A stretch of 32,000 nt of DNA from Pseudodesulfovibrio mercurii (GTDB lineage: Bacteria; Desulfobacterota; Desulfovibrionia; Desulfovibrionales; Desulfovibrionaceae). Every line of letters starts with the position of its first letter. Position 1 is the first letter of the stretch. The stretch covers positions 3,240,001-3,272,000 of the forward strand of contig NC_016803.1 of assembly GCF_000189295.2 (NCBI RefSeq), written 5' to 3'. The position numbers and the translations under genes are program-made. Below, piece after piece: positions 14,442 to 32,000 of this stretch. Under the pieces are notes generated by a model. The model had not been told where the DNA came from and did not search any database. It was given only the letters and a program-made list of their open reading frames with translations.

Positions 14442-14457
14442 TCCTTCCGGCGTCAGC

Positions 14458-14955: not shown

Positions 14956-14965
14956 GATATCCCTC

Positions 14966-15448: not shown

Positions 15449-15498
15449 GGCTCCTCCGTGGGGCTTGGGCGATGTGTCGGTGATGGGCGCCGTGGCGG

Positions 15499-16890: not shown

Positions 16891-17087
16891 GGCGTGGTGG
16901 CCCTTTAAAAAATTGTTAACAAAAATAATTTCATAGAATGCATCAATAATCAATACCGCGTTGCTCGTCATAATGAGACGGACAGGTGAGGATTTTTTTC
17001 CGCAGGTGACCTTTTTCCCCACGGGTTGCGTAACGCGAGACAACCCGCTATCTCTACGGACGGGGAAAAACTGTCTGCAAATCAGGG
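16891..17087. promoter_or_regulatory. Divergent control region between the caspase-1 operon and the sigma operon
   Basis: An AT-rich stretch (16905-16960) stands out in a GC-rich genome. A direct repeat CAGGTGA-NN(N)-T5-7 occurs at 16983 and 17003, exactly 20 bp apart. An inverted repeat CGGGTTG-N12-CAACCCG lies at 17022-17047, 41 nt upstream of the sigma ATG. I could not assign any promoter hexamers with confidence. Confidence 0.3.
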
Positions 17088-17939: not shown

Positions 17940-17946
17940 GACAAAG

Positions 17947-18843
17947 ATGCAGAGGACGAATCGGCATATGGCGCACCATCTGAGCGACGAACAACTGGCC
18001 GAACTGGGTCTGGCCGCGACGGAAGGAACCGGGCATCCCGGCCCCTGCCCGTCCGCCGAGGATCTGGCCGCACTGCGGGAGGGCCGCCTGGACGCGGCCC
18101 GCCGGGCCGAAATCCTGGCCCATCTCGACGGTTGCGCCGAATGCGTGGCCCGGTGGCTGGCCGTGTCGTCGGTGGACGCATCCTCGGAGGACGCGCCGGA
18201 GCGGGCCGTCCCGGCCCCCAGGGCCGTGTCGCCGGTCTTTGTCCGGACCGTGGCCGTGATTGCGGCCGTTGCCGCCTGCGTGTTTTTCGTCATCCGTCTC
18301 TTTCCCCCGAGCGGGGGCGGGCCGGACTTCGCGCGCTCCGTGGACGCCGGGTACCGGCTCGTGCTGGACGATCCCCGGTTGTACGCCGCCCTGAGCGGCC
18401 CGGTCCGGGAGCTGGCCGCGTCCGGCGGGGTGCGGTCCGCCGGGACCCCGGCCGAAGGCGCGTTCGAGGCCGGGTGGGCGGCGGGCCTGGCCGCGCTGGG
18501 CCGGGGCAGGGAAGGGGTTGCCGCGCCTTCCGGCAACGCGCGCGCGGAGTACGTCTTTGCGGCGGGACGGTGGAGCGTCCTGGTTCATGCGGCGCTGGAC
18601 GCGGAGGTCCCGTCCGGCGGGAATTTCTGGAAGGAGCAGGCGCGGACCGCCGGGCTGTTCCAGGAGCGGACGGCCGCGCTCGCGCCTGGGGACGAGACCC
18701 GGCACCGGGCCCTGTGGGGGGACCTGGCGGCGGTCCTGGACCGTCTGGCCGACGGTTCCGCCACGGCGCGGGACCGGGACCGGCTGTGCAGGCTCCTGGG
18801 CGGGCTCGGTCGGGTCATGGGGGAATCGGACCTCGGCGCCTGA
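17947..18843 (+). CDS. Zinc-binding (ZAS-type) anti-sigma factor, single-pass membrane protein with periplasmic domain
   Basis: HLDGCAECV matches the H-x3-C-x2-C motif. It is followed by a TM segment (VFVRTVAVIAAVAACVFFVI) and an Ala/Gly-rich extracytoplasmic domain of about 190 aa. In-frame starts exist at 17932, 17947 (AGGA 5 nt upstream) and 17968, so the exact start is uncertain. Confidence 0.7.
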   Translation: MQRTNRHMAHHLSDEQLAELGLAATEGTGHPGPCPSAEDLAALREGRLDAARRAEILAHLDGCAECVARWLAVSSVDASSEDAPERAVPAPRAVSPVFVRTVAVIAAVAACVFFVIRLFPPSGGGPDFARSVDAGYRLVLDDPRLYAALSGPVRELAASGGVRSAGTPAEGAFEAGWAAGLAALGRGREGVAAPSGNARAEYVFAAGRWSVLVHAALDAEVPSGGNFWKEQARTAGLFQERTAALAPGDETRHRALWGDLAAVLDRLADGSATARDRDRLCRLLGGLGRVMGESDLGA

Positions 18844-18877
18844 CGAAAAAACCGGGCCGCGTCCGTCTGACAATGTC

Positions 18878-21013
18878 ATGAACATCCACTTGCCCATCAT
18901 CCATCGTCCGAGGCCCGTCGCCGGGTGGCTGCCCGCCCTGGTCCCGGCATTGTTCCTGCTGCTGACGTCGGTCGCCTTCGGGGCGCAGAAGTACGCCCTG
19001 CTCATCGGCATCAACGACTATTCCCACACCGGCTTCCGCTCCCTGCGCGGGGCCAGGAACGACATCGACCTCATGCGCGGGGTGCTCGTCTCCCGCTTCG
19101 GGTTCGCGCCCGGGCATATCGTCCAGCTGGTGGACGGCCAGGCCACGCACACGGCCATCCGCGACGCCTTCCACCGCCTGCGGGACACGGTCGGTCCCGG
19201 AGATTTCGTCTACATCCACTATTCCGGCCACGGCTCCTCGGTCTGCGACGTGAGCGGCGACGAGGGACCCGGCGGGCTGGACTCCACCTGGGTCGCCTTC
19301 GGATCGAGGACCGGCGGCAAGGGCAAGGCCGGGCCCGTGGACTGCCGCCTGCTGCGCGAGCGGGCGGGGACCCTCCCCGCCTGGAGCGACGGCATCGACT
19401 CCTACGACATCCTGGACGACGAACTGAATGGCTGGCTGGTGGAGTTGGGCCGCGTCACGGACAACATCGTGTTCGTGTCCGATTCCTGCCACTCCGGCAC
19501 CGTGACCCGGAGCTTCGAGGCTCGGGCCACGCGCGGCCTGCCCCGCGATTTCCGGCCCTACGTGCCCGGCCGGATCGAGACCGGGACCCTGCGGGGCGTC
19601 CGGATCGGGGCCTGCCGGGACGACGAAAAGGCCGGGGAGTACCGCACCGGGGACAAGGTCTACGGCATGTTCACCTGGTTCTGGGCCAATGCCCTGATGG
19701 AGGTCGGGCCGGACGCCACCTGGCAGGACCTGGTCAAGCGGGCCTCCGCGCTCATCGGCTACGAGTACGCCGGGTATTCCAATCAGCACCCGCAGATCGA
19801 GGGCGGCCTGGACCGGGAGGTCTTCGGCGGCGGCGGGCGGGACCTGGACGACAGGGTGTCCGTGGCCGGAGTGGACGACGGCCTGGTGTCCCTCAATGCG
19901 GGCAGCCTGTCCGGAGTGACCGTCAACTCGCTCTACGTGGACACGTCCCGGGGGGGCGGAGCCGGGGAGCGCAGCGTGCGGATCGTCTCGGTGGAGCCGA
20001 CCATGAGCATCGGCGAGACCTCGGCGGACCTGAAGCCGGGGGACCTGCTGTCCCTGAAGCGGTTCTGGCCCGAAGCCTCCTCCCGGTCGATCTTCGTGCG
20101 CGCGGAGCTGCCCGGCGACGCCCTCTACGCGGCCATGGCCCGCGAGGCCGTGCGGAACATGCCGCAGTTCGAGCTCGCCGGGGACGAATCCTCGGCGGAC
20201 CTGATCCTGCACATCTTCCGGCCCGGCAGGGGGGCGGCCAAGGACGCCGCCCGGCAGGAAGGCCCGCCCGCATCGGACGAAAGCGCCCCGGTCCAGTGCT
20301 GGATTCTTTCCCCGGACGGGCGGCCCCTGGCCGAGGGCGGGCGCAGGCTCACCCTGGCCGTGACGCGGGACTGGGAGAAGCCCCTAGAGGATGCCCTGGA
20401 ACGGGTCTCCAGGGTGCGCCATCTGCTGACCCTCAAGTCGCCGCCGGGCGCGGCCCGGCCGGTGATCATGGAGATGACCATCTGGAAGCCCGCCGTTGCC
20501 GGGGCCACGGGCGAGATTCGGGAGATCGGCGGCAGGCGCTACGCCCGCTGGGGCAGCTTCGACACGGACGTTTCCGACACGGCCGTCCTGGCCGTGGGCG
20601 ACGTGCTGACGTTCGGCATGTACAACCAAAGCGATACGCCGTATTACTGCTATCTGATCGATATCACTGACGACGGCAGGATTCTGCCCTTCTACCCGAC
20701 CGAGGAGAAGGGCATGGAATCGGGCAAGGTGCTGCCGGGGCAGACCCTGGACACGGCGGACGACCTTTCCCTGGAAATGGACCGGTCCGGGCGCGAATAC
20801 ATCCAGCTGATCGTCAGCCGGGACCCGGTGGACATCGGCCTGCTCAACCAGCGCCGGGCCGGGTCTTCCGGCAAGGACCTGGGCTTTGCCGGGAGCTTCC
20901 TGCTGCCCGCCTCCGGCCGTGGCAAGGACGTGGACCGGAGCGTCCCCCCGGCGCAGTGGGCAACGGAAAAACTGGTCCTGGACATAGCCGCCCGGGGCGG
21001 GAGCAACTCATGA
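18878..21013 (+). CDS. Exported caspase-like peptidase (C14 family) with middle domain and C-terminal DUF4384-like domain (paralogue 2)
   Basis: The real start is the ATG at 18878 (MNIHLPIIHRPRPVAGWLPALVPALFLLLTSVAFGAQ, a signal/anchor). Motifs: ALLIGINDY, catalytic His in HYSGHGSS, catalytic Cys in VSDSCHSGT. The C-terminal VGDVLTFGMYNQSDTPYYCYLIDITDDGRILPFYPTEE...YIQLIVSRDP is DUF4384-like. The upstream 120 codons of the track ORF are a shadow of the anti-sigma gene. Confidence 0.9.
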   Translation: MNIHLPIIHRPRPVAGWLPALVPALFLLLTSVAFGAQKYALLIGINDYSHTGFRSLRGARNDIDLMRGVLVSRFGFAPGHIVQLVDGQATHTAIRDAFHRLRDTVGPGDFVYIHYSGHGSSVCDVSGDEGPGGLDSTWVAFGSRTGGKGKAGPVDCRLLRERAGTLPAWSDGIDSYDILDDELNGWLVELGRVTDNIVFVSDSCHSGTVTRSFEARATRGLPRDFRPYVPGRIETGTLRGVRIGACRDDEKAGEYRTGDKVYGMFTWFWANALMEVGPDATWQDLVKRASALIGYEYAGYSNQHPQIEGGLDREVFGGGGRDLDDRVSVAGVDDGLVSLNAGSLSGVTVNSLYVDTSRGGGAGERSVRIVSVEPTMSIGETSADLKPGDLLSLKRFWPEASSRSIFVRAELPGDALYAAMAREAVRNMPQFELAGDESSADLILHIFRPGRGAAKDAARQEGPPASDESAPVQCWILSPDGRPLAEGGRRLTLAVTRDWEKPLEDALERVSRVRHLLTLKSPPGAARPVIMEMTIWKPAVAGATGEIREIGGRRYARWGSFDTDVSDTAVLAVGDVLTFGMYNQSDTPYYCYLIDITDDGRILPFYPTEEKGMESGKVLPGQTLDTADDLSLEMDRSGREYIQLIVSRDPVDIGLLNQRRAGSSGKDLGFAGSFLLPASGRGKDVDRSVPPAQWATEKLVLDIAARGGSNS

Positions 21014-21645
21014 ACAGCGTGAAATGGTGTCTTGTCGTCGTATTGAGCCTGTTGTTCGCCGCGCCATGCGGCGCGGGCGAGCGCGTGAACCGCAGCGCCG
21101 AGGACGGGGCCAAGTCGCCCCGGGTGGTGATGATCGAGCAATACGCCCTGTCCGTGTCCATGGCCGACTACGGCGAGAGTTCCGGCAATCCGGTGGTCCT
21201 CCTGGCCGCTGCCCAGATTATGAAGGACGCCGGGCTCGGTGCCGAGGCGGACCGGGACGCGGCGCGCATCCTGGAGTCGGCCATGCGGCGCGCGGGCACG
21301 AACCTCAAGCTGCGCTCCCTGATCACCGCCGAGATGCGGCGGCAGGGCATGCGCGGCAATGTCCAGGGCCCGGCCAAGAACGTCAACCGGCTGGAGCCGA
21401 GCGGCGCGGCCGAGCACGACGTCCGCTTCATGGCCGGGGAACGGGCCGCGGTCTACGTCAAGAGCCGTGGCGGCCGCTTCAAGGTCTCGGTCTACGACGA
21501 AAACGGCGGCCTGGTGGCCGACCGGGACGGCGTGGACAGGGAGTGCATGGTCCAGTGGACGCCCGACTGGGACGGGCTGTTCACCATCAAGGTGGCCAAC
21601 CGGGAACAGGGGGCCGAACTGGCCTACCTCATGCTGACCAACTAG
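21010..21645 (+). CDS. Secreted hypothetical protein with a possible pre-peptidase-C-terminal-like beta-sandwich
   Basis: The ATG overlaps the caspase stop (ATGA at 21010-21013). Signal peptide: MNSVKWCLVVVLSLLFAAPCGAG. The C-terminal FMAGERAAVYVKSRGGRFKVSVYDENGGLVADRDG...WDGLFTIKVANRE resembles PPC-type domains. That resemblance is a low-confidence judgement by eye. Confidence 0.65.
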   Translation: MNSVKWCLVVVLSLLFAAPCGAGERVNRSAEDGAKSPRVVMIEQYALSVSMADYGESSGNPVVLLAAAQIMKDAGLGAEADRDAARILESAMRRAGTNLKLRSLITAEMRRQGMRGNVQGPAKNVNRLEPSGAAEHDVRFMAGERAAVYVKSRGGRFKVSVYDENGGLVADRDGVDRECMVQWTPDWDGLFTIKVANREQGAELAYLMLTN

Positions 21646-21662
21646 CGCCCACGGAGAGAGAC

Positions 21663-22187
21663 ATGTTTCGGAAATTCTGCATCGGGGTTTGTCTGGCATT
21701 CGCGGCGGTCGCCCTGGCCGGGGTCGCCCTGGCCGGGGAGGTGATCGACAGCGACACCCTGGTCCGGCAGCTGGAGGACGGCGGGAGCGGCGGCATGCGC
21801 ACGCGCGGCTTCACGGTCAACAAGGCCGCGGCCGAGACGCCCAGGCCCTCGGCGACCGTCTACATCTATTTCGCCACCAACAGCGCGGTCATCACCGGCG
21901 AGCAATCCTTCAGGCAGCTCGACGAGCTGGGCCGGGCCCTGACCTCAAGCGCCCTGCGCGGGGCGCGCATGGAGATCGGCGGCCATACGGACAGCGTGGG
22001 CAGCGATGCCTACAACCTGCAATTGTCCAGGAAGCGGGCCCAGGCCGTGAGCGACTATCTCAACAAGAAGTATGGGTTCACGGCTGCGGCCGTCACGGGC
22101 TACGGCGAGTCCGCCCCCGTGGCCTCCAACGAGACCGCCGAGGGGCGGGCCGGGAACCGCCGGGTGGTCATCACCCGCCTGGATTAG
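21663..22187 (+). CDS. OmpA/MotB-family peptidoglycan-binding protein (exported)
   Basis: Signal peptide MFRKFCIGVCLAFAAVALAGVALAGE. OmpA_C motifs: IYFATNSAVI, IGGHTDSVGSDAYNLQLSRKRAQAV, GYGESAPV, NRRVVI. Confidence 0.9.
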   Translation: MFRKFCIGVCLAFAAVALAGVALAGEVIDSDTLVRQLEDGGSGGMRTRGFTVNKAAAETPRPSATVYIYFATNSAVITGEQSFRQLDELGRALTSSALRGARMEIGGHTDSVGSDAYNLQLSRKRAQAVSDYLNKKYGFTAAAVTGYGESAPVASNETAEGRAGNRRVVITRLD

Positions 22188-22206
22188 GCTCGGGGAAGTC
22201 TGCGCC

Positions 22207-24279
22207 GTGAAATTCAAGTGGAAGCTCCTGCTGGTCCTGCTGGCCGTGGCCCTGGTGCCCCTGCTGGTCATGCGGGTGGTCATCCAGGACGCGGACGAGG
22301 AGTCCGCCCGTGTCCTGGCAGAGCGGTTCGGCCTGGGCGTGTCCGTGGGCCGGGACGCGGACGACGACCTGTCCATGCCCCTTGAGGACATCCTCGTGGC
22401 CCGGACCGAATCCGAACTGCTCTCCGTGGCCCGACGGTCCGCCCGGACGGCCGGGGACCGCTTCCGGCTGCTCGCCCAGGTGCAGCGGGAACAGCTGCGC
22501 CTGCTGGCCGGAGACGCGCCCCAGGATACGCCGCCCGAGCGGACCGGGGCCGGGAGCGGCTACTGGGCCTGGACCGGGGACGGCAAGCGGTCCCGGCTGG
22601 AGGTGGATCTCTCCTCGCTCACCACGCTCTCCCCGGAAGGCGGCGTCCCTGCGGCCCCGGACGGGTTTCTCGGGACGGCGCTCCCCGCCCTCGAATTCGG
22701 CAAGCGCTCCCTGCCCCGGCTGGTCCTGTGGCAGTGGGCCCGGTCCACGGATGGGACCGTCTGCCTGTATCCCGGACTGCCGGGCAACGGGGGCGCGCTC
22801 GTCCGGGAGTTCGCCGCCGTGGGCAGGGAGGCGGTCGGCACACCGGTTACGGTCCTGGCCAGCCCGGCCACGCACCAGCTGATGCTGCTCTCGACCCTGC
22901 GGGGCCGGACCCTGTCATCCCCCACGGTCACGGTGGCGGCCGCCATGGACGACCTGTTCGACAGCGCGGACGCGGTGGGGTTGCCCGCCGGCATCCAGTG
23001 GTTTTTCGTCCAGGCGGACGGGGAGGTGGTGCGCCTGCTCGCCTCGCGCACGCCCGGCGACGATCCCGGCTCCCTGTACTGGGCCTCGGGCGACCCCCTG
23101 CCCGACCTCGGGCCTGACCGGGGCGGCCCGCTCCGGGCCGGTCTCCGGGACGGCGGCCACGGGTCGTTTCGCCGGGGCGAAGGGGACGCCGACCATCTCT
23201 GGATCTTTGCCGGGCTGGGGGTGCGCGGCCTGGGCGTGGTCCTGCGCCTGTCCGTGTCCTCCCTGCTCGGGCAGTCCCTCCAGGCCGAGCGGTTCGTCGG
23301 CGAGACCATCCGGGTCCGGCACCGGACCATGATGCTGGTCATCGCGGGCCTGGGGCTGCTGACCCTGCTCGCGGCCCTGGCCCTGTCGAGCACCATGACC
23401 CGGCGCATGGAGCGGCTGGCCGAGGCGTTCAGGCAGGTGGCGGCGGGCGATTTTTCGGTCCGGGTGCGGGTGCGCGGCCGGGACGAGCTGGCCCAGCTGG
23501 GCGCGACCTTCGACGAGATGGTCCCGGCCCTGGACGAGCAGGTGCGCATGAAGCGGGACATGGCCGTGGCCCGTGGCATTCAGCAGTGCCTCATGCCCGA
23601 GGACGCGCCGTCCGCGCCGGGGCTGGACGTGGCCGGAATGTCCATCCCGCACGACGAGACCGGCGGGGATTACTATGATTTCTTCCGCTTCGACAACGGC
23701 GAGGTCGGGGCCGTGGTCGGGGACGTCACCGGACACGGCATCCCGGCGGCCCTGCTCATGGCCAGCTCGCGGGCCTTCCTCCGCGCCAACCTCGATGGGG
23801 GGGCGGATGCGGGACAGGTCCTGACCCGCGCCAACGAGCTGCTTTCGCGGGACATCCAGACCACGGGCCGGTCCATGACCGCGTTCCTGTGCGCCGTGGA
23901 CCCTGCCCGCCGGATGATCCGCTGGTCCCGCGCCGGACACGATCCGGCCATCGTCTACCTGCCCGGCAGCGGCGCCTTCGAGGAACTGGCCGGGGACAGC
24001 GGGCTGCCGCTGGGCGTCATGGACGGGATGGAATATGTGGAGGAGCGGCGGGAACTGCCCGAGGGCGCCGTGGTCTTCTTCGGCACGGACGGGGTCTGGG
24101 AGACCCATGGCCGGGACGGGGAGCTGTTCGGCAAGGACCGGGTCAGGGCGATCCTCCGGGAGAACGCGGACCGTTCCGCCGGGGCCATCGCCGACGTGAT
24201 CCTGTCCTCGGTCCGGGCCTTCGCCGGTGACGACGGGGTCGAGGACGACCTGACCCTGATCGTGCTCAGGCTGGTCTAG
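22207..24279 (+). CDS. Membrane sensor PP2C-type (SpoIIE/RsbU-like) serine phosphatase with periplasmic domain and HAMP
   Basis: GTG start at 22207 (VKFKWKLLLVLLAVALVPLLV is TM1). A periplasmic region of about 370 aa leads to TM2 (MMLVIAGLGLLTLLAALALS) and a HAMP domain (FRQVAAGDFSVRVRVRGRDELAQLGATFDEM). PP2C motifs: ARGIQQCLMP, GGDYYDF, VVGDVTGHGIPAALLMA, FGTDGVWE, DDLTLIVL. Confidence 0.9.
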   Translation: MKFKWKLLLVLLAVALVPLLVMRVVIQDADEESARVLAERFGLGVSVGRDADDDLSMPLEDILVARTESELLSVARRSARTAGDRFRLLAQVQREQLRLLAGDAPQDTPPERTGAGSGYWAWTGDGKRSRLEVDLSSLTTLSPEGGVPAAPDGFLGTALPALEFGKRSLPRLVLWQWARSTDGTVCLYPGLPGNGGALVREFAAVGREAVGTPVTVLASPATHQLMLLSTLRGRTLSSPTVTVAAAMDDLFDSADAVGLPAGIQWFFVQADGEVVRLLASRTPGDDPGSLYWASGDPLPDLGPDRGGPLRAGLRDGGHGSFRRGEGDADHLWIFAGLGVRGLGVVLRLSVSSLLGQSLQAERFVGETIRVRHRTMMLVIAGLGLLTLLAALALSSTMTRRMERLAEAFRQVAAGDFSVRVRVRGRDELAQLGATFDEMVPALDEQVRMKRDMAVARGIQQCLMPEDAPSAPGLDVAGMSIPHDETGGDYYDFFRFDNGEVGAVVGDVTGHGIPAALLMASSRAFLRANLDGGADAGQVLTRANELLSRDIQTTGRSMTAFLCAVDPARRMIRWSRAGHDPAIVYLPGSGAFEELAGDSGLPLGVMDGMEYVEERRELPEGAVVFFGTDGVWETHGRDGELFGKDRVRAILRENADRSAGAIADVILSSVRAFAGDDGVEDDLTLIVLRLV

Positions 24280-25941
24280 CTATTTGCCCATGTATTCGTC
24301 CAGCGCCTGGTTCACGCTCTCTTTGAGGAAGAACAGGTAGCGGGTCACCGGATAGTAGCTCCCCCGCGATTCCTTCAGCGTGAAGGTCTTCAACGTGTCC
24401 TTTTTCGCATCGTAGAAGTTGCACAGGACGTATATTTGATTCGAGGTGTTCAGGGTGCTCAGGTAGGTCGACACGGCCATCAGGGTGTCGGCGTGCAGCT
24501 GAACCGCCATCTGCCTGAGGATATTGGTGTCGGGGGGCCGGGAGGCCCCGCCGGACCACAGGATCGCCTCCGCGTTCGGGGACAGGGTATAGGGATGCGC
24601 CGGCGAATCCCCGTCTCCGGCGCAAAAGACGGAAAGGACGTCCTTTCTCTCGGCCAGGACGGAGAGCAGCTTTTCCCGTCCCTTCACCTCCCAGTCGCGC
24701 CGCTTGTATTTGTAGGTCCAGGCAAAGGCCATGGGCGCCACAGAAAGGACGAGCCTGCCGTTGGCGGCGCTCAGGGCTTTTTGCCTGGCGGACAGGGGAT
24801 CGACGTCGGTATGGACGATGTCCGATCCGCCTGAAACGATCCGGTTCTGCTGCAATGCGGCCACCTGTTGCCGCATGGCTTCCAACTGGGCCTTGAGCTC
24901 CTCGTCGGTCTGGCCGGATTGCGGGGCCGGGACGGGCTGCGGCCGGGTCTCGGCCTGTTCCTGCATGGCGGCCATCTGCTGCTGCACGGCCGCGAGCTGG
25001 GCCTTGAGCTCCTCGTTGGAATCGTCGGGCTGCCGCGTCTGGACCAGTTCGGCGTTCTGCCGGGCCTGCTCCTGGAGCGCCGCCATCTGCTGTTGCATGG
25101 CCAGGAGCTGCGCCTTGAGCGCCTCGGTCTCGGGGGTGACGGCCGGGGCGGGCGGGGGCGTCGGCGCGGCGACCGGTTCCGGTTTCTTCTCACGGAAATA
25201 GAACTTGCCGATCAGGGACGAGGATTCCCACGGCGTCTGGCGACCGCCGGTGTCCCGGATCACGCCGCGCCGGACCTGCATGAAGGTGTCGTAGATGTCC
25301 AGGCCGGGGGTGTTCATGGCCGCGAGCAGGTTCTTGGTGTAGACCCCGTTGCGTCCCTCCCCGTCGGCCGCCACCGAGCCCGGAGCCGTGGCGTAGGCCA
25401 TGATGGACCCGGTGGGCGCGTCCATGCGGGCCAGGCCGGTGGTCTCGGAGCGCATGGACCGGGCAAAGGGGTTGTTGCGGCAGGCGTCCAGGATGATGAT
25501 GTTCATCTGGTTGCCCGCCAGCTTCAGGTGATCCAGGATGCGGCCCGCCGAGACCGCCTCATAGGGCACGTCCGCCTCGGTCTCGATGTCCGCGTCCACC
25601 GGGATGAGGTAGTTCTCCCCGTTCACCTGGATGCCGTGCCCGGCGAAATAGAAGAGGCCCACGCCGCCGTCCGCCAGCTGCCTGGACAGCTTGCGCACGG
25701 CGTTCTCCATCTGGCGCCGGGTGCCGTCGGTCAGGAGCGTGACCCGGAAGCCGAGTCCCTCGAGTTCCCTGCCGACGTCCGTGGCGTCGTGGACGGGGTT
25801 GGCCAGGGGCATGCCGGGGTAGGCGGAATTGCCGATGACCAGGGCGGTTTTCTGGGGAGCGGCGGCCCTGGCGGGCGCGAGAAGGAGCAGGGTTGTCGCC
25901 AACAGCGAGACGACGATGGCGATGGGGGTTCTGGTGTGCAC
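24280..25941 (-). CDS. Exported caspase-like peptidase (C14) with Pro-rich linker, 3 x 37-aa coiled-coil repeat and unknown C-terminal domain (paralogue 3)
   Basis: GTG start at 25941 (GGAG 6 nt upstream), with signal peptide TPIAIVVSLLATTLLLLAPARA. Motifs: ALVIGNSAY, catalytic His in YFAGHGIQ, catalytic Cys in ILDACRNNPF. Then a KKPEPVAAPTPPPAPAVTPE linker, three EELKAQLxAxQQQxAAxQEQ repeats, and about 190 aa with no family I recognise. Confidence 0.9.
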   Translation of the reverse strand: MHTRTPIAIVVSLLATTLLLLAPARAAAPQKTALVIGNSAYPGMPLANPVHDATDVGRELEGLGFRVTLLTDGTRRQMENAVRKLSRQLADGGVGLFYFAGHGIQVNGENYLIPVDADIETEADVPYEAVSAGRILDHLKLAGNQMNIIILDACRNNPFARSMRSETTGLARMDAPTGSIMAYATAPGSVAADGEGRNGVYTKNLLAAMNTPGLDIYDTFMQVRRGVIRDTGGRQTPWESSSLIGKFYFREKKPEPVAAPTPPPAPAVTPETEALKAQLLAMQQQMAALQEQARQNAELVQTRQPDDSNEELKAQLAAVQQQMAAMQEQAETRPQPVPAPQSGQTDEELKAQLEAMRQQVAALQQNRIVSGGSDIVHTDVDPLSARQKALSAANGRLVLSVAPMAFAWTYKYKRRDWEVKGREKLLSVLAERKDVLSVFCAGDGDSPAHPYTLSPNAEAILWSGGASRPPDTNILRQMAVQLHADTLMAVSTYLSTLNTSNQIYVLCNFYDAKKDTLKTFTLKESRGSYYPVTRYLFFLKESVNQALDEYMGK

Positions 25942-25991
25942 GGTAAACTCCGGGGACAGGGTGAGACTCGGTGGCTCGGCGGCAGGCCGTG

Positions 25992-26020
25992 AACATATCA
26001 ACAAGCGCCAACTTGTTCAA
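25992..26020 (-). promoter_or_regulatory. Candidate sigma70-type promoter for caspase paralogue 3, overlapping a short palindrome
   Basis: The minus strand reads TTGAAC (26020-26015), a 17-nt spacer, then TATGTT (25997-25992). The spacer contains AACAAG-N8-CTTGTT. This would place the TSS about 45 nt upstream of the GTG at 25941 and downstream of the track's ATG at 26004. Confidence 0.3.
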
Positions 26021-26231: not shown

Positions 26232-26663
26232 TTATTCGCCCGATATCTTGAGGGATTCGGCCTGGGAGCCGTCGTCGAGCCATTCCAGCTCGATCTCGCA
26301 TTTGGCCTTGTCCTTTTTGCGGGCCAGCTTGAGCTCCACCTGCATGGTCTCGGGCACGCCGAGGACCAGGGTGCCGCCCTCGTTCTCGGCGCGGATGACG
26401 CCGGATTCGATGGAGTCGGCCAGGTCCTTGAGGTAGGCGACCACCTGGGCCGTGTCCATGGTCTGTTCGATCTTGATCTTGCCTTTGCCCATCGTGGTCT
26501 CCTCGTTGTCGGTCGCGGCCGGGCGGAACAGGCCGGTGCGCGGTCCGGCCGTGTCCGCCCGCGGGGCGGGTTGCGTGGTTTCGGGGGCCGGGCCGGAGGC
26601 CTCGGGGGTCGCGGCGGGCGTGACCCACTCAAGAGGGTTGGTCCCGAGTCTCTCGTCGCTCAT
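26232..26663 (-). CDS. Amphi-Trp domain protein with Pro/Thr/Ala-rich N-terminal extension
   Basis: KIKIEQTMDTAQVVAYLKDLADSIESGVIRAENEGGTLVLGVPETMQVELKLARKKDKAKCEIELEWLD matches my memory of the amphi-Trp domain: alternating-charge strands and a conserved Trp in an ElEW motif. The ATG at 26663 overlaps the ParA stop (ATGA), and the 57-codon extension has high GC3. An alternative internal ATG at 26492 has a strong GAGGAG RBS. Confidence 0.75.
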   Translation of the reverse strand: MSDERLGTNPLEWVTPAATPEASGPAPETTQPAPRADTAGPRTGLFRPAATDNEETTMGKGKIKIEQTMDTAQVVAYLKDLADSIESGVIRAENEGGTLVLGVPETMQVELKLARKKDKAKCEIELEWLDDGSQAESLKISGE

Positions 26664-27415
26664 GGGGCACCTCTGCGGAGCAGTTCCAGGGCCAGGTTCC
26701 GGTAGTCGGCGGCCCCGTGGCTGCGGGGTTTGTAGGTGAAGATGTCCCGGCCGAAACTGGGGGCCTCGGCCAGGGAGATGTTGTCGCGGATGGTCGTATC
26801 CAGCAGGGCGTCGCCGAAGTGGTCCTTGATCTTGCGCCGGATCTCCCGGTTGAGCTTGCGGGTGCGTTGGTAGCGGGTCATGAGGATGCCGGACAGGGTG
26901 AGATGCGGGTTCCAGCCCTCGCGGATGGCCTTGACCGTCTCCATGAGCTTGCCCAGGGATTGCAGGGCCAGGAATTCCGGCTGCACCGGCACGAGCAGTT
27001 CGTTCGCCGCGACCATGGCGTTCAGTGTGAGCATGCCGAGGTTGGGCGGGCAGTCGATGATGGCGAAGTCGTACCCTCCGGTCCCGGCCAGGGCGTCGCG
27101 CAGCCGGGTCTCGCGGTTCCCGGCCGAAGCCAGGTCCACCTCGGTCCCGGCCAGGGCCACGGAGGCGGGCACCACATGCAGTCCGCCGACCTCCATGGTC
27201 ACGCTGTCCAGGGGACACTCGCGCATCAGGGCCGCGCCCATGGTCCGGGGCAGCTCGTGGGCCATGATGCCCAGGGAATAGGTCAGATGCGCCTGGGGGT
27301 CGAGGTCCAGCAGCAGGACGCGCCGGTCCTGCCGGGCCAGGGCGGCCCCCAGGTTCACGGCGGTGGACGTCTTGCCCACGCCCCCCTTCTGGTTCAGTAC
27401 GGCGATGATGCGCAT
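26660..27415 (-). CDS. ParA/Soj/MinD-family P-loop ATPase (orphan, no ParB seen)
   Basis: Deviant Walker A in IIAVLNQKGGVGKTSTAVNLG, plus LLLDLDPQAHLT, Walker B DFAIIDCPP, and LVPVQPEFLALQSL. Confidence 0.95.
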   Translation of the reverse strand: MRIIAVLNQKGGVGKTSTAVNLGAALARQDRRVLLLDLDPQAHLTYSLGIMAHELPRTMGAALMRECPLDSVTMEVGGLHVVPASVALAGTEVDLASAGNRETRLRDALAGTGGYDFAIIDCPPNLGMLTLNAMVAANELLVPVQPEFLALQSLGKLMETVKAIREGWNPHLTLSGILMTRYQRTRKLNREIRRKIKDHFGDALLDTTIRDNISLAEAPSFGRDIFTYKPRSHGAADYRNLALELLRRGAP

Positions 27416-27427
27416 GCCGGTCCCGGT

Positions 27428-27613
27428 CTAGTGCGTGGTGTGCAGGGTGATCTTCTTGATGACGTACTCCCGGCCGTAGCGGCAGGTCAGGGAGTTGATC
27501 CGTTCGAGAATGCGGTCCCGCTCCTCGTCCACCATGTCGGGGTTCTCCTCTTCGATGCCGAACAGGTCGGCCACCTCATTCCATTCGAAACATTGATCTT
27601 GCGTTTCAGTCAT
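27428..27613 (-). CDS. Small acidic hypothetical protein (61 aa)
   Basis: MTETQDQCFEWNEVADLFGIEEENPDMVDEERDRILERINSLTCRYGREYVIKKITLHTTH. RBS GGAG lies 7 nt upstream of the ATG at 27613. The gene ends 12 nt before the ParA start. I recognise no family, and it is too short for certainty. Confidence 0.5.
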   Translation of the reverse strand: MTETQDQCFEWNEVADLFGIEEENPDMVDEERDRILERINSLTCRYGREYVIKKITLHTTH

Positions 27614-27645
27614 TGTTTTTCTCCGCAATGGGCTCGTGCTCGTTG

Positions 27646-28191
27646 TTATTTCTTGTCGGCGGACTTGGCCGACGTTTTCTTGGCGATGGATTTCTTGGAT
27701 GCCGCCTTTTTTGCCGCTTTTTTCCCGTCCGGGTCCTTTTTGGCCGCCGCCTTTTTCGCTTCGAATTTGGCCTCGGATTTGGCCTCGGATTCGGGCCTGG
27801 CTTCGGTGGTGGCCGGGACCCTGGCCGGTTCGGTGGTGGCCGGGGCCATTGCCGGAATCTTGGCGGCCGGGGCCTGGGCCGCGGGCTTCATGGCCGGGGC
27901 GCCGCCCTCGGGCTGGATCGCCGGTGCGGGCGCGGGCTCGGCGTCGCCGATCCGGAGTTCGTCCCCTCCGGCCTCGGTCCAGCTCAGCTCGAAGCCGATC
28001 TTCTGCTTGTCGTTCTTGACTTTGGCCTCCACCTTGACGGCCACCTGGGCGCCGGGCGTCATGACCACGTGCTCCCCGCCGCTCTCCACCACGATGGTGC
28101 CGGACCGGAAGCTCCTGGCCAGGTCTTCGATGTAGGACACGGCGTCCTTGTACTCCAGGACCTTCTTGACACTGATCTTTTGCTTATCCAC
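27646..28191 (-). CDS. Amphi-Trp domain protein with Pro/Ala-rich linker and Lys/Ala-rich (histone H1-like) C-terminal tail
   Basis: GTG start at 28191 (GGAGG 8 nt upstream). The domain KISVKKVLEYKDAVSYIEDLARSFRSGTIVVESGGEHVVMTPGAQVAVKVEAKVKNDKQKIGFELSWTE parallels the other amphi-Trp protein. The tail reads ESEAKSEAKFEAKKAAAKKDPDGKKAAKKAASKKSIAKKTSAKSADKK. Confidence 0.75.
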   Translation of the reverse strand: MDKQKISVKKVLEYKDAVSYIEDLARSFRSGTIVVESGGEHVVMTPGAQVAVKVEAKVKNDKQKIGFELSWTEAGGDELRIGDAEPAPAPAIQPEGGAPAMKPAAQAPAAKIPAMAPATTEPARVPATTEARPESEAKSEAKFEAKKAAAKKDPDGKKAAKKAASKKSIAKKTSAKSADKK

Positions 28192-28217: not shown

Positions 28218-29426
28218 TCAGCAAAGCGACAGCAAAAATTCGCTCAGGACCCGGCCGTCGAGGTGCGGCGCGCTCCGCGCCGTGACCAGGGGGCCGTCTA
28301 TGACCGTGAAGCCGCGCTCCTCGATCCGCTTTCTGTCGATGCCCCCGGCGTACCGCCCGTTTTTCGAGTCCACCAGGACGTAGCCCAGGACCTCGCCGTC
28401 TCCGGTACCGCCGCCGTCCCCGTCGTGGGCCTCGACGTCGGCCCGCAGGTGGCGGCAGAGGATGTCCGCCCGCTCGGCCACGGACACGCCGGGCGTCTCG
28501 GGGTCCGCGCCCGTGGACGGGACGAAGACCTTGGGGCAGGTGTTGGCGGCCACGGCCCGGCCCACGCCGTCGACCAGCAGGTTGGCCACCACGCTGGAAT
28601 AGAAGCTGCCCGGCGGGTAGCAGATCAGGTCCGCCTTGCCGATCCACTCCCGGACCTTCTTGCGGATGGCCGTGCGGACCGGTTCCCGGTCGTCCGGGGA
28701 GCGGGTCAGCCAGATGTCCTCGATGGGCGAGGCGAGCGGGGCGGACTCCTTGCCGGTAATCCGGTGCTGTCCCACGATGGTCTCGCCGTCGGCCAGGCGC
28801 ACGGCCAGGTGCAGGTCCTGGTTCACGGTCGGGCGGACCACGCCGCAGACCTGGACCAGCTTGGAGAAGAGGTAGATGACCGGGTCCAGTTGGCGGCGGT
28901 TAGACAGGTACCCGGCGGTCAGGACCAGGTTGCCGATGGACGCGCCCCGGAGGTCGAAGTCCTCGGGCATGCGTTCCAGGAATTCGTAGAAATGGTTGCG
29001 GATGAGCTTGCGCATGGGGTCCGGGATGCGCCGGACCAGGGGGTGCGCCCCGGCGGCCATGGCGTCCAGGTCGGCGCGCAGGGCGTCGCGCTCCCCGTCC
29101 TTGGGCAGCCGGTGGGTGAACAGGTTGTATATCTCGGGGTTGCCCTGCACGGACTGGTCGGCCAGGGCCATGAGCCGGTTGCGGATGTCGCCCACGGCGG
29201 GCATGCCGAAGGCCTTGCGGATGACCGCCGAGCTGCCCCCCGAGTCGAAGGGGGTGATCAGGTGGATGGAGTTGTGGGTGTAGCGGATGAGCTCCCTGGA
29301 GGTGTCGCGCAGGGCCGAGCCGCCGCTGAAGAAGAGCACGGACGGGCCGAGTTCGGGGGCCCGCCGGAACTGCTCCAGCTTTCGCGGGTCCGGGATGGTG
29401 ACGTCCCTGGTGACTCGAATGCGCAC
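28218..29426 (-). CDS. CofD/YvcK-family protein (CofD-related protein of the GAK system)
   Basis: GTG start at 29426 (GGAG 6 nt upstream), 11 nt after the kinase stop. The N-terminal VLFFSGGSALRDTSRELI and ITPFDSGGSSAVIR resemble the CofD/UPF0052 nucleotide-binding region, and LICYPPGSFYSSVVANLL resembles its C-terminal motif. The upstream 276 codons of the track ORF are a shadow. Confidence 0.85.
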   Translation of the reverse strand: MRIRVTRDVTIPDPRKLEQFRRAPELGPSVLFFSGGSALRDTSRELIRYTHNSIHLITPFDSGGSSAVIRKAFGMPAVGDIRNRLMALADQSVQGNPEIYNLFTHRLPKDGERDALRADLDAMAAGAHPLVRRIPDPMRKLIRNHFYEFLERMPEDFDLRGASIGNLVLTAGYLSNRRQLDPVIYLFSKLVQVCGVVRPTVNQDLHLAVRLADGETIVGQHRITGKESAPLASPIEDIWLTRSPDDREPVRTAIRKKVREWIGKADLICYPPGSFYSSVVANLLVDGVGRAVAANTCPKVFVPSTGADPETPGVSVAERADILCRHLRADVEAHDGDGGGTGDGEVLGYVLVDSKNGRYAGGIDRKRIEERGFTVIDGPLVTARSAPHLDGRVLSEFLLSLC

Positions 29427-29437
29427 TGTCCGCTCCG

Positions 29438-30535
29438 TCAGTCGGCCGGGAGGAGGCCGGTTTGCATGTACCGCAAGCATATCTCGGAAGCGCGGTCGAA
29501 GTCCACGCCTCCGGCGATTTCGATGAGATCGGTCTTGGACAGGAGCGCGGCGTAGGCGTCCTCGTCCGGGTCCGCCCGCCGGGCCGGGTCGTCGGGCAGG
29601 TAGAACAGCCCCGTGGACTTCATGAACGCGGGCAGCAGGTCGCGGCGCTCCCGTGGGTCCACCAGACCGGCGCGCAGGGGGGCGCGGTCCCGGCTCCAGT
29701 TGAGGACGACCAGTGCGTTCATGGGGCAGCGCAGCTCGAATTTGCCCGGTCCGTAGCACTCGTCGATGAGGGCGTCGTACTTGTGCTCCAGCTGCCACAG
29801 CTCGTCCTTGGGCAGGGACAGGAACTTCTCGCGCATGCCCGGCTCCACGATGCAGTGCAGGTCCGGGTTGTGCAGGGCCGTGCCGGGGTTGATGCGCGGC
29901 TGCTTGGCCACCCCGTACATGACCAGGCCGTCGCCGTCCTCCTCGACCATGACCCGGTCGTTGGAGATGAAGGTCGTGCCCCTGCTCATGAGGTGCAGGG
30001 CCAGGGTGGACTTGCCCGCGCCCGAGAATCCGGCCAGGGAGATGCCGCGTTCGCCCGAACGCACCCCGGCGGCGTGGCCCAGGAACCCGCCCCTGTTGAG
30101 CTTCCACTCGATGAACCGGTTGTTGACGAAATTGATGACCTGGTTGGGGTTGTCCAGGCACGGCCCCACGGCCACGTTCTCGCCCCGGCCGAAGAGGAAG
30201 TGCATGCCGGTCAGCCGCTTGCGGACCACGCGGCCGTCGGGCAGGTCGATCCACTCCTCCTTGATCCTGGTCTTGCCGGGATCGGGCTCCTTGACGTTGA
30301 AGGCGAGGTCCGTGTCCACGGCCGGGACCTCGTGGGCCGAGAGGGTGATCTCCGGCTCGCCGTCCCCGGTCAGGAACTCCTTGAAATAGTCGGCCAGGAC
30401 GTCGTGCAGGGCGTCCGTGGAGCTGTCCACCCGGATGCGGCAGCCGCCGAGGTCCAGGTGGAGGGTGTGCCCGGCCGGGCAGGCCGTCTTCACGGCCTCG
30501 GCCAGTTCCCTGCGGGTGGTGCCGGTCAGCTTCAT
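29438..30535 (-). CDS. HprK-related P-loop kinase (HprK-related kinase B type)
   Basis: The ATG at 30535 overlaps the ATP-grasp stop (ATGA). The P-loop GISLAGFSGAGKSTLALHLM followed by FISNDRVMV resembles the C-terminal kinase domain of HPr kinase/phosphorylase. Confidence 0.8.
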   Translation of the reverse strand: MKLTGTTRRELAEAVKTACPAGHTLHLDLGGCRIRVDSSTDALHDVLADYFKEFLTGDGEPEITLSAHEVPAVDTDLAFNVKEPDPGKTRIKEEWIDLPDGRVVRKRLTGMHFLFGRGENVAVGPCLDNPNQVINFVNNRFIEWKLNRGGFLGHAAGVRSGERGISLAGFSGAGKSTLALHLMSRGTTFISNDRVMVEEDGDGLVMYGVAKQPRINPGTALHNPDLHCIVEPGMREKFLSLPKDELWQLEHKYDALIDECYGPGKFELRCPMNALVVLNWSRDRAPLRAGLVDPRERRDLLPAFMKSTGLFYLPDDPARRADPDEDAYAALLSKTDLIEIAGGVDFDRASEICLRYMQTGLLPAD

Positions 30536-31404
30536 TTGAGTTTCTCCATGACGTAGTCCACGTAGCGCGCGGCGGCGTCGATGCCGCTGGTCTCCTGGAT
30601 GCCCCGGAAGCCCCCGAACACGGAGACCTCGAAGACGTAGGGGCCGTCGTCGGTGATGGCCACGTCCACGCAGGTGAAGTCGAGGTTGAAGTCGGCCTGG
30701 GCCTTGCGGGCCAGCTCGATGATCTCGGGCGCGGGCTCGTAGGGCCGGTATTTGCCGCCCGAGGCCGTGGTCGTGTTCCAGGCCCCGTTGGTCTTGCACC
30801 GGGCGTAGGTGGTCAGGTACTCGCCGCCCAGGAAGGCGATGCCCAGGTCCAGATCGCCCAGCTCGATGGTCTTCTGGATGTACAGGATCGGGTTCTCGGC
30901 CTTGTACTCCTCGATGGCCGCCCGGGCGTCCGGGCCGTTCCTCAGCACGAACATGCCGCGCGCCTTGGAGGTGTACAGCGGCTTGAACACGGCCTCGCCG
31001 TATTGCTCCAGCGCCGTCAGGGCCTGGTCCACGGACTCCGTGACGGTCGTGGGCGGCATGGGGATGTCCTTGAGTTGCAGCGAGATGGTGCAGGACAGCC
31101 GGTCCAGGGCGCGCAGGATGGCGTAGGGCGCGCTGAATATCCTGAGCCCCCGCTCGTGCAGGTAGCGCAGGACCTCCAGCCGGTCCAGGAGGTCCGGGGA
31201 ATAGCGCGCGCCGATCTTCTTGATGATCAGGGCGTCGAAATCGTTCAGGGTGTGCCCGTCGTAGAAGGCCCGGCCCGAGGGTAGGTCCAGGCGCACGTCC
31301 TCCATGTCGATGAGCACGCGCTCCCCGCCGGTCTTCTCGGCCACGGTGTCCGCCAGTTTTTCGGAGGACCAGCCGCCCTCGATGCCAATGACTCCTATCT
31401 TCAC
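30532..31404 (-). CDS. RimK-like ATP-grasp ligase (ATP-grasp enzyme of the GAK system)
   Basis: GTG start at 31404 (AAGGAG 7 nt upstream). The 290-aa protein has the ATP-grasp layout: MKIGVIG pre-ATP-grasp region, VFKPLYTSKARGM, ILYIQKTIE, and DFTCVDVAITDDGPYVFEVS (Mg/ATP-binding C-terminal motif). Confidence 0.9.
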   Translation of the reverse strand: MKIGVIGIEGGWSSEKLADTVAEKTGGERVLIDMEDVRLDLPSGRAFYDGHTLNDFDALIIKKIGARYSPDLLDRLEVLRYLHERGLRIFSAPYAILRALDRLSCTISLQLKDIPMPPTTVTESVDQALTALEQYGEAVFKPLYTSKARGMFVLRNGPDARAAIEEYKAENPILYIQKTIELGDLDLGIAFLGGEYLTTYARCKTNGAWNTTTASGGKYRPYEPAPEIIELARKAQADFNLDFTCVDVAITDDGPYVFEVSVFGGFRGIQETSGIDAAARYVDYVMEKLK

Positions 31405-31423: not shown

Positions 31424-32000
31424 CTAGTAGTAGAGGACGTCCTCGGGCAGGGAGAAAAGCTCCCAGTCCCCGCCCCGGTATTGATGAATCTTTTCCAGCA
31501 GGAACATGGACCGGTTGTACATCTCCTTGGCGAACTTGAAGTTCAGCTCGAACCGGGTGGAGGTGTAGAAGCTGCGCGCCAGGGCGAAGGCCAGCCGGGC
31601 CTGGACCGTGGGGTCCTCGTGCCGCTGGGCGAACTCCAGGATGAACCCGTAGAACTGCCGGATGACCGAGTTGATGCGTTTGCGGTGGTCCGAATCGAAC
31701 AGGGGCACGCGGAAGTTGGAGACCAGGAAGACCGAGGCGTCCTGGACGTAGTCGAAGTCCCGCGAGCGGTACAGGTCGATGTAGTGGATCTGCTGGGCCT
31801 CGTGGTTGTAGACCACGTTGTTGATGTTGAAGTCGCCGTGGATGAAGACCGAGAAGGGGGCTTCCAGCTCGTCCTCGATGTCCGCGCAGGCCGACAGCAG
31901 GGCCTCGGTGGACCGGACCTCCGACGGCCCCAGGCTCTTGGGGTCGCGCCAGAACTCGGGGTGGGTCTGGAGCACGCCTTCCAGGCGGGACTGGATCTGC
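31424..32000 (-). CDS. Aminoglycoside-phosphotransferase/choline-kinase-like (APH fold) kinase, C-terminal part (5' end beyond window)
   Basis: Brenner-type catalytic motif FIHGDFNINNVV, followed by IHYIDLYRS (metal-binding Asp). The frame stays open to nt 32000, so the listed GTG at 31975 is internal. The stop lies 19 nt upstream of the ATP-grasp start. Confidence 0.75.
   Translation of the reverse strand, partial: QIQSRLEGVLQTHPEFWRDPKSLGPSEVRSTEALLSACADIEDELEAPFSVFIHGDFNINNVVYNHEAQQIHYIDLYRSRDFDYVQDASVFLVSNFRVPLFDSDHRKRINSVIRQFYGFILEFAQRHEDPTVQARLAFALARSFYTSTRFELNFKFAKEMYNRSMFLLEKIHQYRGGDWELFSLPEDVLYY

Follow-up and report, generated by a model that had tools for sequence, protein, structure and literature searches.

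The GAK system of Pseudodesulfovibrio mercurii: a catalogued gene cassette with a YvcK/GlmR-type CofD-like protein and a possible link to the modification of amphi-Trp proteins

The GAK system and its closest described relatives

The GAK system is defined by the NCBIfam/TIGRFAMs families TIGR04354–TIGR04358, that is, the amphi-Trp protein, the HprK-related kinase B (HprK-B), the GAK ATP-grasp enzyme, the GAK CofD-like protein and the XXXCH domain. These models are "hypothetical equivalogs" to which no function is attached, and our literature searches on the system names and on the gene combinations found no paper on the function of the system. Here we describe a copy of this system in a stretch of 32,000 nucleotides from Pseudodesulfovibrio mercurii (contig NC_016803.1, positions 3,240,001 to 3,272,000), which as a whole is called the window. 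Three tightly packed genes for the CofD-like protein, HprK-B and the ATP-grasp occupy exactly positions 28,218–31,404, from the stop codon of the CofD-like gene to the start codon of the ATP-grasp gene (Table 1).

The nearest experimentally shown precedent for the logic proposed below is the tailoring of the lasso peptides paeninodin and pseudomycoidin. There, a P-loop relative of HPr kinase phosphorylates a serine of a small gene-encoded substrate and a second enzyme, a nucleotidyltransferase, builds a phosphodiester-linked Ser-phosphate-sugar adduct; in the case of pseudomycoidin the nucleotidyltransferase extends the Ser phosphate with hexoses (PMC8498205). The GAK cassette differs in several aspects. 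Genes for a lasso cyclase, a protease or a transporter are lacking, the substrates would be folded proteins of 90–190 residues and not peptides, the second enzyme has the CofD/YvcK fold instead of being a nucleotidyltransferase of the lasso-peptide type, and HprK-B forms a family of its own.

For the single enzymes other systems are closer. The ATP-grasp shares its full-length subfamily architecture with RimK, with LysX of the LysX/LysW pair and with MptN, although the GAK enzyme scores below the cut-offs of all of them. The protein acceptors of RimK and LysX, S6 and LysW, carry a conserved C-terminal Glu which the amphi-Trp proteins do not have. The nearest relative of the CofD-like protein in fold and sequence is YvcK/GlmR (UPF0052). 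Both have the motifs GGS, GD.RN and GS.Y..v..NL and both are paired in the genome with a P-loop NTPase, YvcJ/RapZ in the Firmicutes. Unlike YvcK/GlmR, the CofD-like protein has kinases, an ATP-grasp and amphi-Trp proteins as neighbours and not yvcJ/yvcL, and it has no link to GlmS or to cell-wall genes. The more distant pair of CofD/FbiA and CofF from the biosynthesis of coenzyme F420 has in common with the cassette the CofD superfamily fold and the broad class of RimK-type ATP-grasps, and a phosphodiester formation followed by glutamate capping would be a conceivable common logic.

The assignment of the locus itself is straightforward. All three enzymes match their family-specific models over the full length (profile positions 1–368 of 368 for the CofD-like protein and TIGR04357, 1–287 of 287 for the ATP-grasp and TIGR04356, 1–351 of 351 for the kinase and TIGR04355), and the scores in Table 1 are to be compared with NCBIfam cut-offs of 340, 300 and 200 bits, respectively. 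The gene row is real, and with E-values of 1e-135 to 1e-165 chance is excluded. Two further genes of the window match the amphi-Trp model TIGR04354 (cut-off 31 bits). At the level of superfamilies, Pfam gives CofD with 140 bits, RimK with 51.6 bits (cut-off 21) and Hpr_kinase_C with 27 bits, the latter below its cut-off. Proteins of Pseudodesulfovibrio methanolicus, Desulfovibrio caledoniensis and related metagenome bins share 84–88% identity with the CofD-like protein, and in GenBank many of these homologues are already called "GAK system CofD-like protein". Since three family-specific models are matched far above their cut-offs, and in view of the two amphi-Trp matches, the named homologues and the synteny, it is near certain that this region represents the GAK system, which is catalogued and biochemically uncharacterised, in an intact copy arranged like an operon. 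The window shares the gene order of annotated Pseudodesulfovibrio and Nitratidesulfovibrio genomes and nothing essential is different. As the families, the cassette and the name pre-exist in NCBIfam, the locus is an ordinary further member of the catalogued set. A preliminary description of this DNA had placed a CofD-superfamily protein, a P-loop kinase and a RimK-like ATP-grasp side by side, with another kinase upstream. These family calls were right, and the upstream kinase is real as well; it is the C-terminal part of a kinase of the APH/EcKL type with a PhoU domain (PhoU-kinase).

In close relatives, the full cassette has the order XXXCH-domain protein, a protein of 386 residues, a first amphi-Trp protein (amphi1), PhoU-fused APH-like kinase, ATP-grasp, HprK-B, CofD-like protein and a second amphi-Trp protein (amphi2). 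By synteny it is completely visible in P. methanolicus (locus L001) and Nitratidesulfovibrio sp. HK-II (L002), where amphi1 has about 88 residues. The window does not contain the first three genes because it ends inside the PhoU-kinase gene. In the syntenic loci L001 and L004 the XXXCH gene (TIGR04358, 114 bits), the gene of the 386-residue protein and amphi1 are found past the position of the window end, and we infer that they are probably present in this genome too.

Scanning one genome per species, we found at least 586 stretches which encode a relative of the CofD-like protein. The conservation counts refer to the best 80 of these at least 586 loci, which were searched with hidden Markov models built from the cassette proteins. 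These 80 loci belong to many orders of the Desulfobacterota, to Zixibacteria and Eisenbacteria and to Gammaproteobacteria (Halomonas, Hahella and others). Partner genes were counted in those 61 loci whose upstream sequence reaches 6.5 kb or more. ATP-grasp, HprK-B and PhoU-kinase occur together in 47 of the 61, an amphi-Trp gene in 52, the gene of the 386-residue protein in 46 and the XXXCH gene in 40, and the gene order, which is repeated across dozens of genomes, is nearly constant among them. The amphi2 position downstream of the CofD-like gene is filled in most loci.

Two other architectures exist, as the CofD-like gene and the set of kinases and ATP-grasp are each found without the other, nearly always adjoining an amphi-Trp or XXXCH gene. 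A minimal module of XXXCH/amphi1, CofD-like protein and amphi2, without kinases or ATP-grasp, is present in L040, L072, L035 and L066, in surroundings that are otherwise unrelated (rpoC, two-component and sigma-54 regulators, or a GGDEF regulator). In the gammaproteobacterial version (Table 1) the operon holds PhoU-kinase, ATP-grasp, HprK-B and amphi-Trp protein, and the CofD-like gene is not within the operon: it is divergently transcribed in L058, L074 and L085 and absent from the locus in L084 and L086. This version is also without the XXXCH and the 386-residue protein. Instead there are additional genes for NUDIX, a SixA-like–NUDIX fusion, His_Phos_1, an ApaH/Pnkp-like metallophosphatase and sometimes an enzyme of the EEP family.

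Some loci show further arrangements. The cassette of L085 has genes for a PHO4 phosphate transporter, a two-component system and a PhoU_div protein in its vicinity. Four Maridesulfovibrio loci (L015, L017, L018, L022) have a second CofD-like paralogue about 7–8 kb downstream of the cassette on the opposite strand, and P. cashew also has two CofD-like paralogues (P0013, P0087). In a Desulfatirhabdium metagenome-assembled genome (L042) four tandem amphi-Trp paralogues directly follow the CofD-like gene.

The enzymes of the cassette

Judged by its sequence and its predicted fold, the CofD-like protein is a YvcK/GlmR-type protein of the CofD superfamily. The NCBIfam scan returned no match of the protein to the true CofD equivalog model at E ≤ 0.01; the second-best model is YvcK (TIGR01826), with 125.1 bits in two stretches and thus below the cut-off of 196. 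A profile search of the Protein Data Bank (PDB) with 14 orthologues retrieved only YvcK/UPF0052 structures (2ppv with E = 6e-31, then 2o2z, 2hzb, 2p0y and 2q7x; 1e-29 to 1e-31 for the nearest relatives) and no CofD or FbiA at E ≤ 1e-3. The AlphaFold (AF2) model is of high quality by its own measures (predicted local distance difference test, pLDDT, 90.7; predicted template modelling score, pTM, 0.90). With Foldseek, the model aligns to YvcK-type structures with E of about 1e-20 to 1e-21, template modelling (TM) scores of 0.79–0.85 (TMt 0.84 for 2hzb/2o2z) and 24% identity, and to CofD 3c3d (TMt 0.68) and FbiA 6uw1 with E of about 1e-7 to 9e-9, TM scores of 0.52–0.68 and 11–15% identity. Relative to YvcK, about 45 additional, helical residues are inserted in the CofD-like protein (roughly in the region of residues 97–155). 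The motifs GGS, GD.R.R and GS...S..A(N) are invariant across the orthologues. In GlmR of Listeria monocytogenes the combined mutation of D40, D41 and N198 lowers the reported uridyltransferase activity about 100-fold (PMC10128056). When the CofD-like protein is aligned by sequence to 2ppv/2o2z, the equivalent of D41, D61, is invariant and that of N198, N282, is nearly invariant.

The closest model of the ATP-grasp apart from its own family is MptN with 149 bits, followed by rimK_fam with 104.2, LysX with 81 and CofF with 17.7 bits; the gammaproteobacterial orthologue reaches 144 bits with MptN. The enzyme passes the Pfam RimK cut-off and does not reach the cut-off of 143.4 bits of the RimK family TIGR00768. 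In the PDB, the nearest structures are RimK (5zct/4iwx, E = 1e-15) and enzymes of the LysX type. Among 24 orthologues 60 columns are invariant.

These results bear on the first idea about the cassette. The preliminary description had seen in the CofD-like transferase next to the RimK-like ATP-grasp a mirror of CofD and CofF in the assembly of the F420 tail. Taken literally, the CofD-like protein would be a 2-phospho-L-lactate transferase and the ATP-grasp a glutamate ligase of the CofF type, in the synthesis of F420 or of an F420-like deazaflavin. For this speaks only the membership in the superfamilies, with the Pfam CofD match and the RimK-type ATP-grasp. Against it stand the missing match to the CofD equivalog, the CofF score of 17.7 bits where the cut-off of TIGR04443 is 300, and the predicted fold and PDB profile search, both of which place the protein with YvcK and not with CofD/FbiA. 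In the window there is also no F420 gene context. No cofC-, cofE-, cofG- or cofH-like gene is found among the window genes that were scanned, a check which covers the window only; the other genes scanned encode histidine kinases, an ABC transporter, GreA, a type III glutamine synthetase, MscS, caspase-domain proteins and a SpoIIE phosphatase. The host phyla are not known F420 producers: a comprehensive review of the F420 distribution mentions neither Desulfovibrio nor any Desulfobacter-type name nor Deltaproteobacteria, and it gives CofF only for some Euryarchaeota (PMC8498797). We therefore reject a role in F420 synthesis as extremely improbable on the grounds of the CofD and CofF model scores, the YvcK-like fold and the gene and taxonomic context. 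The enzyme families had been named correctly, whereas the F420 parallel holds only at the level of superfamilies, and the framing should better be replaced by a YvcK/GlmR-like and RimK/MptN-like chemistry.

For HprK-B, the model of HPr kinase/phosphorylase (TIGR00679, cut-off 240 bits) gives 25 bits, with about 40 residues around the P-loop aligned, and the model of HprK-related kinase A only 27.7 bits. Against the HPr kinase structures 2qmh/1jb1 (E = 0.015) the P-loop segment GFSGAGKSTLAL..ISNDR is the only part that aligns. Its key positions are kept: in all 26 orthologues compared, the P-loop GxxGxGKS and the N-D-R motif are conserved without change at G169, G172, G174, K175, S176, N192, D193 and R194. 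The translated fragment of the PhoU-kinase in the window contains the catalytic-loop motif HGDFNINN; H-G-D-x-N-x-x-N and a downstream Asp are invariant among the orthologues. The full-length syntenic orthologue of P. methanolicus (550 residues) has a complete PhoU domain (TIGR02135 with 83 bits; PDB PhoU 4q25 with E = 9e-22) which is followed by the kinase domain. Because residues of the catalytic type are invariant across the orthologues, the cassette enzymes look like working enzymes.

Possible substrates and the role of the amphi-Trp proteins

Every architecture of the cassette, be it full, minimal or gammaproteobacterial, includes an amphi-Trp or XXXCH gene, and no other partner is common to all of them. 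The comparative evidence thus tilts towards a protein as the substrate. An exhaustive profile search for amphi-Trp proteins, clustered at 50% identity, gave 1950 clusters. The best 150 of these contained no informative domain fusion; all 150 are stand-alone proteins of about 76–200 residues, mostly of about 90. The AF2 model of the amphi2 domain (pLDDT 83.8) shows a four-stranded sheet against which a single amphipathic helix packs, and Foldseek found no fold match for this model in the PDB at E < 1. De novo designed immunoglobulin (Ig)-like proteins, which matched the profile, were discarded as relatives, as these matches look like an artefact of beta-hairpin composition. Just before the helix, according to a pattern search, 112 of 114 short amphi-Trp proteins carry the amphi1-type Ser/Thr motif [E/D]-S-[L/I/V]-Q-[D/S], and the other two have a variant form of it. 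The invariant Ser/Thr of the motif is the best candidate for an acceptor or functional site.

The amphi2 protein of the window has a Lys/Ala/Pro-rich tail which is histone H1- or AlgP-like in the Desulfovibrionaceae and acidic or short in Desulfobacterales and other lineages; only the domain, not the tail charge, is conserved. In its N-terminal half, the XXXCH protein looks like a shortened amphi-Trp domain. The C-terminal part of about 90 residues begins with a near-invariant Met and ends with a near-invariant Cys beside an invariant His (CH..YK). The profile weakly matches (E = 0.009–0.1) the last helix of cytochrome c', the one with CXXCH, as well as designed four-helix bundles that bind porphyrin; it can also be aligned to the C-terminus of cytochrome b562, but with an hhalign probability of only 3.7%. 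The XXXCH part may be a haem- or porphyrin-binding bundle.

We tentatively propose, giving it somewhat less than an even chance, that the enzymes of the cassette act on the small amphi-Trp proteins and not on a free cofactor, and that they set a reversible, phosphate-responsive phospho- or nucleotide-linked mark. The PhoU domain of the lead kinase and the gammaproteobacterial hydrolases point to a chemistry on phosphate esters or anhydrides and nucleotide-linked groups. Such a mark could be set in the following steps. A kinase, most plausibly HprK-B, would phosphorylate a hydroxyl group of an amphi-Trp protein, the best candidate being the motif Ser/Thr of the amphi1 type. HprK-B is favoured for this step because all its characterised relatives phosphorylate a serine of a small protein or peptide, be it HPr or a lasso-peptide precursor. 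The YvcK/CofD-like protein would bind a nucleotide-activated compound and either transfer a phospho-linked group to the protein or nucleotidylate the phosphate. The RimK-like ATP-grasp would then ligate an amino acid, for which glutamate is the probable choice, to a carboxylate that belongs to either the adduct or the protein. The PhoU domain could couple the activity to the phosphate status. Finally, the mark might be reversed or edited by hydrolases, in the Desulfobacterota by the 386-residue protein and in the Gammaproteobacteria by the NUDIX, histidine-phosphatase and metallophosphatase proteins. Each of these steps is less certain than the general model, and we infer their order.

The broader idea of the preliminary description, a phospho-linked modification possibly on amphi-Trp proteins, is in our view a reasonable hypothesis. 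It fits the comparative data because amphi-Trp/XXXCH genes are common to all versions of the cassette, because of the hydrolases of the gammaproteobacterial version and because the lasso peptides offer a precedent. In its most specific form it would state that amphi-Trp proteins carry a reversible, PhoU-controlled and Ser-linked phosphodiester or nucleotide group, made by the HPr-kinase relative and the transferase of the YvcK/CofD fold and capped with an amino acid by the RimK-like ligase. In this detail the proposal is doubtful; if true, the CofD/YvcK fold would for the first time be shown to have a transferase activity directed at a protein.

It is conceivable that the product is a small molecule. 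The enzymes would then make, or recycle, a metabolite with a phosphodiester or pyrophosphate linkage (a cofactor, an alarmone or a nucleotide-X compound), which the ATP-grasp would cap with glutamate in the way of MptN (tetrahydrosarcinapterin) and CofF (F420), and the amphi-Trp proteins would merely be carriers, chaperones or regulators. Several enzyme families agree with this. MptN, the closest characterised model of the ATP-grasp also for the gammaproteobacterial orthologue, has a small-molecule substrate, kinases of the APH/EcKL type mostly act on small molecules, the substrates of CofD/FbiA and GlmR are small and nucleotide-activated, and free NDP-X or NpnN compounds are typical substrates of NUDIX and ApaH-like hydrolases. 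However, a small-molecule pathway leaves unexplained why two or three genes of the amphi-Trp type are the most constant partners and why there are stand-alone modules of CofD-like and amphi-Trp proteins, and the cassette has no genes for the supply of precursors. Furthermore, HPr-kinase homologues are not known to use small molecules as substrates. Altogether we consider such a pathway rather unlikely.

The similarity of the CofD-like protein to YvcK in sequence and fold suggests still another possibility, namely that the module is regulatory and non-covalent. The CofD-like protein would be a sensor of a nucleotide or nucleotide-sugar, as GlmR/YvcK of Bacillus subtilis, with HprK-B and the small proteins as partners, and a plain phosphorylation of the amphi-Trp proteins would switch assembly or partner binding according to the phosphate status, without any phosphodiester adduct. 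In B. subtilis yvcK/glmR is syntenic with the gene of the P-loop protein YvcJ, and GlmR binds YvcJ in dependence on UDP-N-acetylglucosamine (PMC7525490). A structural or stoichiometric role would also suit an abundant protein, and in the proteome of Dissulfuribacter thermophilus one of the 20 most abundant proteins is of the amphi-Trp type (PMC13490349). In addition, in the clade of the window the gene of an amphi-Trp protein is coupled in translation to that of a ParA-type ATPase. A non-covalent module, however, has no role for the highly conserved ligase-type ATP-grasp with its 60 invariant columns, the NUDIX, phosphatase and phosphodiesterase genes of the Gammaproteobacteria would be unexplained, and other members of the YvcK family are reported to be catalytic (PMC10128056). 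We regard it as improbable, to about the same degree as the small-molecule pathway.

Several observations weigh against a covalent mark on the amphi-Trp proteins. Our literature searches found no report of a modified amphi-Trp protein. The Ser motif is also kept in proteins whose genes have no kinase or CofD-like gene next to them, and because it is conserved whichever enzymes adjoin, it is not assignable to one enzyme. Among the 114 short amphi-Trp proteins the C-terminal residue differs: it is Ser in 43, Lys in 25, Glu in 14, Arg in 11 and another residue in the rest, with Glu or Asp together in 16 of 114. A C-terminal acceptor is therefore not supported, and we rejected a C-terminal Glu acceptor of the RimK/LysW type, which the end ...SGE of the third amphi-Trp protein of the window (amphi3) had prompted. 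With respect to the CofD-like protein, the sequence alignment puts an invariant Phe, F60, at the place of D40, the first residue of the GlmR DD pair, a difference to YvcK/GlmR that also agrees with a sensor. Moreover, YvcK/GlmR of B. subtilis is a UDP-GlcNAc-binding regulator and no transferase (PMC7525490).

Whatever the product, the value lies in the broad and experimentally tractable problem which the GAK system poses and not in this particular locus. The cassette of about eight genes, at least four of which encode enzymes, is present in sulfate reducers of several phyla, in marine and halophilic Gammaproteobacteria and in candidate phyla. Its families have been named by curators for years, and a solution would assign several "hypothetical equivalog" families at once. 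It would probably disclose a new protein modification or a new phosphate-linked metabolite, and it would reveal roles of the YvcK/CofD fold beyond the control of cell-wall precursors and the synthesis of F420.

Gene arrangement in the window and neighbouring genes

The coordinates are collected in Table 1. The start codon ATG of the HprK-B gene and the stop codon of the ATP-grasp gene overlap by 4 nt (ATGA), and the GTG start of the CofD-like gene follows 11 nt past the HprK-B stop. The gene of amphi2 also starts with GTG and has AAGGAGG ahead of it. A scan of the window operon for promoter and terminator was uninformative, and a sigma-54 promoter pattern upstream of the cassette was found in 0 of 53 loci.

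Table 1. Features of the window, with related features of other loci (prefixed by the locus number)
Feature	Location	Strand	Remarks
PhoU-domain + APH/EcKL-like kinase, C-terminal kinase domain	31424..32000	minus	gene cut by window end; Pfam EcKL 26.3 bits, APH 22 bits
GAK system ATP-grasp enzyme, RimK-like ligase, 290 residues	30532..31404	minus	TIGR04356 451.3 bits
HprK-related kinase B, P-loop kinase, 365 residues	29438..30535	minus	TIGR04355 548.7 bits
GAK system CofD-like protein, 402 residues	28218..29426	minus	GTG start; TIGR04357 546.4 bits
amphi2, amphi-Trp protein with Lys/Ala/Pro-rich low-complexity tail	27646..28191	minus	TIGR04354 65 bits, Pfam Amphi-Trp 33 bits
tail of amphi2	27646..27915	minus
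small conserved open reading frame, 61 residues	27428..27613	minus	same-position orthologues in L001, L004, L006
ParA/MinD-type ATPase	26660..27415	minus	matches ParA_partition (117.7 bits) and further models of the ParA/MinD family, each below its cut-off
amphi3, amphi-Trp protein, 143 residues	26232..26663	minus	TIGR04354 64 bits, Pfam Amphi-Trp 49.4 bits
trio after amphi2	26232..27628	minus	61-residue reading frame, ParA, amphi3
block between cassette and glutamine synthetase gene	13149..26004		about 13 kb
caspase-domain protein	24280..26004	minus
XXXCH protein	L001:4353-4877		P. methanolicus
386-residue protein	L001:4902-6062		P. methanolicus
PhoU-kinase, full length	L001:6351-8003		P. methanolicus
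amphi3 orthologue	L001:12778-13239		P. methanolicus
four tandem amphi-Trp paralogues	L042:1823-3210		Desulfatirhabdium
gammaproteobacterial cassette	L085:1-10279
gammaproteobacterial cassette	L086:2135-9621
gammaproteobacterial cassette	L084:2614-10282
gammaproteobacterial cassette	L058:2220-11161

The trio of genes after amphi2 is a clade-specific appendix of the Pseudodesulfovibrio clade. A ParA gene at this place, and with it the trio, is found only in L001, L004, L005, L007, L008 and the window, and among the loci compared the 61-residue open reading frame is restricted to the same clade; it gave no family match in the NCBIfam, Pfam and PADLOC scans. The start of amphi3 and the stop of ParA overlap by 4 nt. 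The protein amphi3 has a disordered N-terminal part of 70 residues, which starts with MSDERLGTNPLEWV, and then the amphi-Trp domain. This N-terminus could be a ParA-interacting peptide, and the arrangement hints at a cellular assembly of amphi-Trp proteins that might be positioned by ParA. A role of the locus in anti-phage defence is unsupported, as the PADLOC check gave no match apart from a weak P-loop match of ParA.

The 386-residue protein of the full cassette gave no Pfam or NCBIfam family and no sequence relative in the PDB, and it has no detectable homology to the metallophosphatase-like protein of the Gammaproteobacteria. Its invariant motifs are HWHPE, IPTQHN, PHPE.FWP, EVWNPQS and MGD(D).H. 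The order of its His, Asp and Glu motifs (HWH...H...E...H...DxH) is reminiscent of metal phosphoesterases of the PHP type.

Between the GAK cassette and the gene of the type III glutamine synthetase, the window contains a block of about 13 kb. It encodes an MscS channel, a HAMP-SpoIIE phosphatase and three proteins with a caspase domain (Peptidase_C14), of which two also have DUF4384, and it contains an OmpA-like open reading frame, which was called by motif only. The block looks like an insertion, because in P. methanolicus (L001) the glutamine synthetase gene directly follows the third amphi-Trp gene. The caspase-domain protein at 24280..26004 has, in its C-terminal region, three near-repeats of EELKAQL.AMQQQMAALQEQ, which have the look of a coiled coil.

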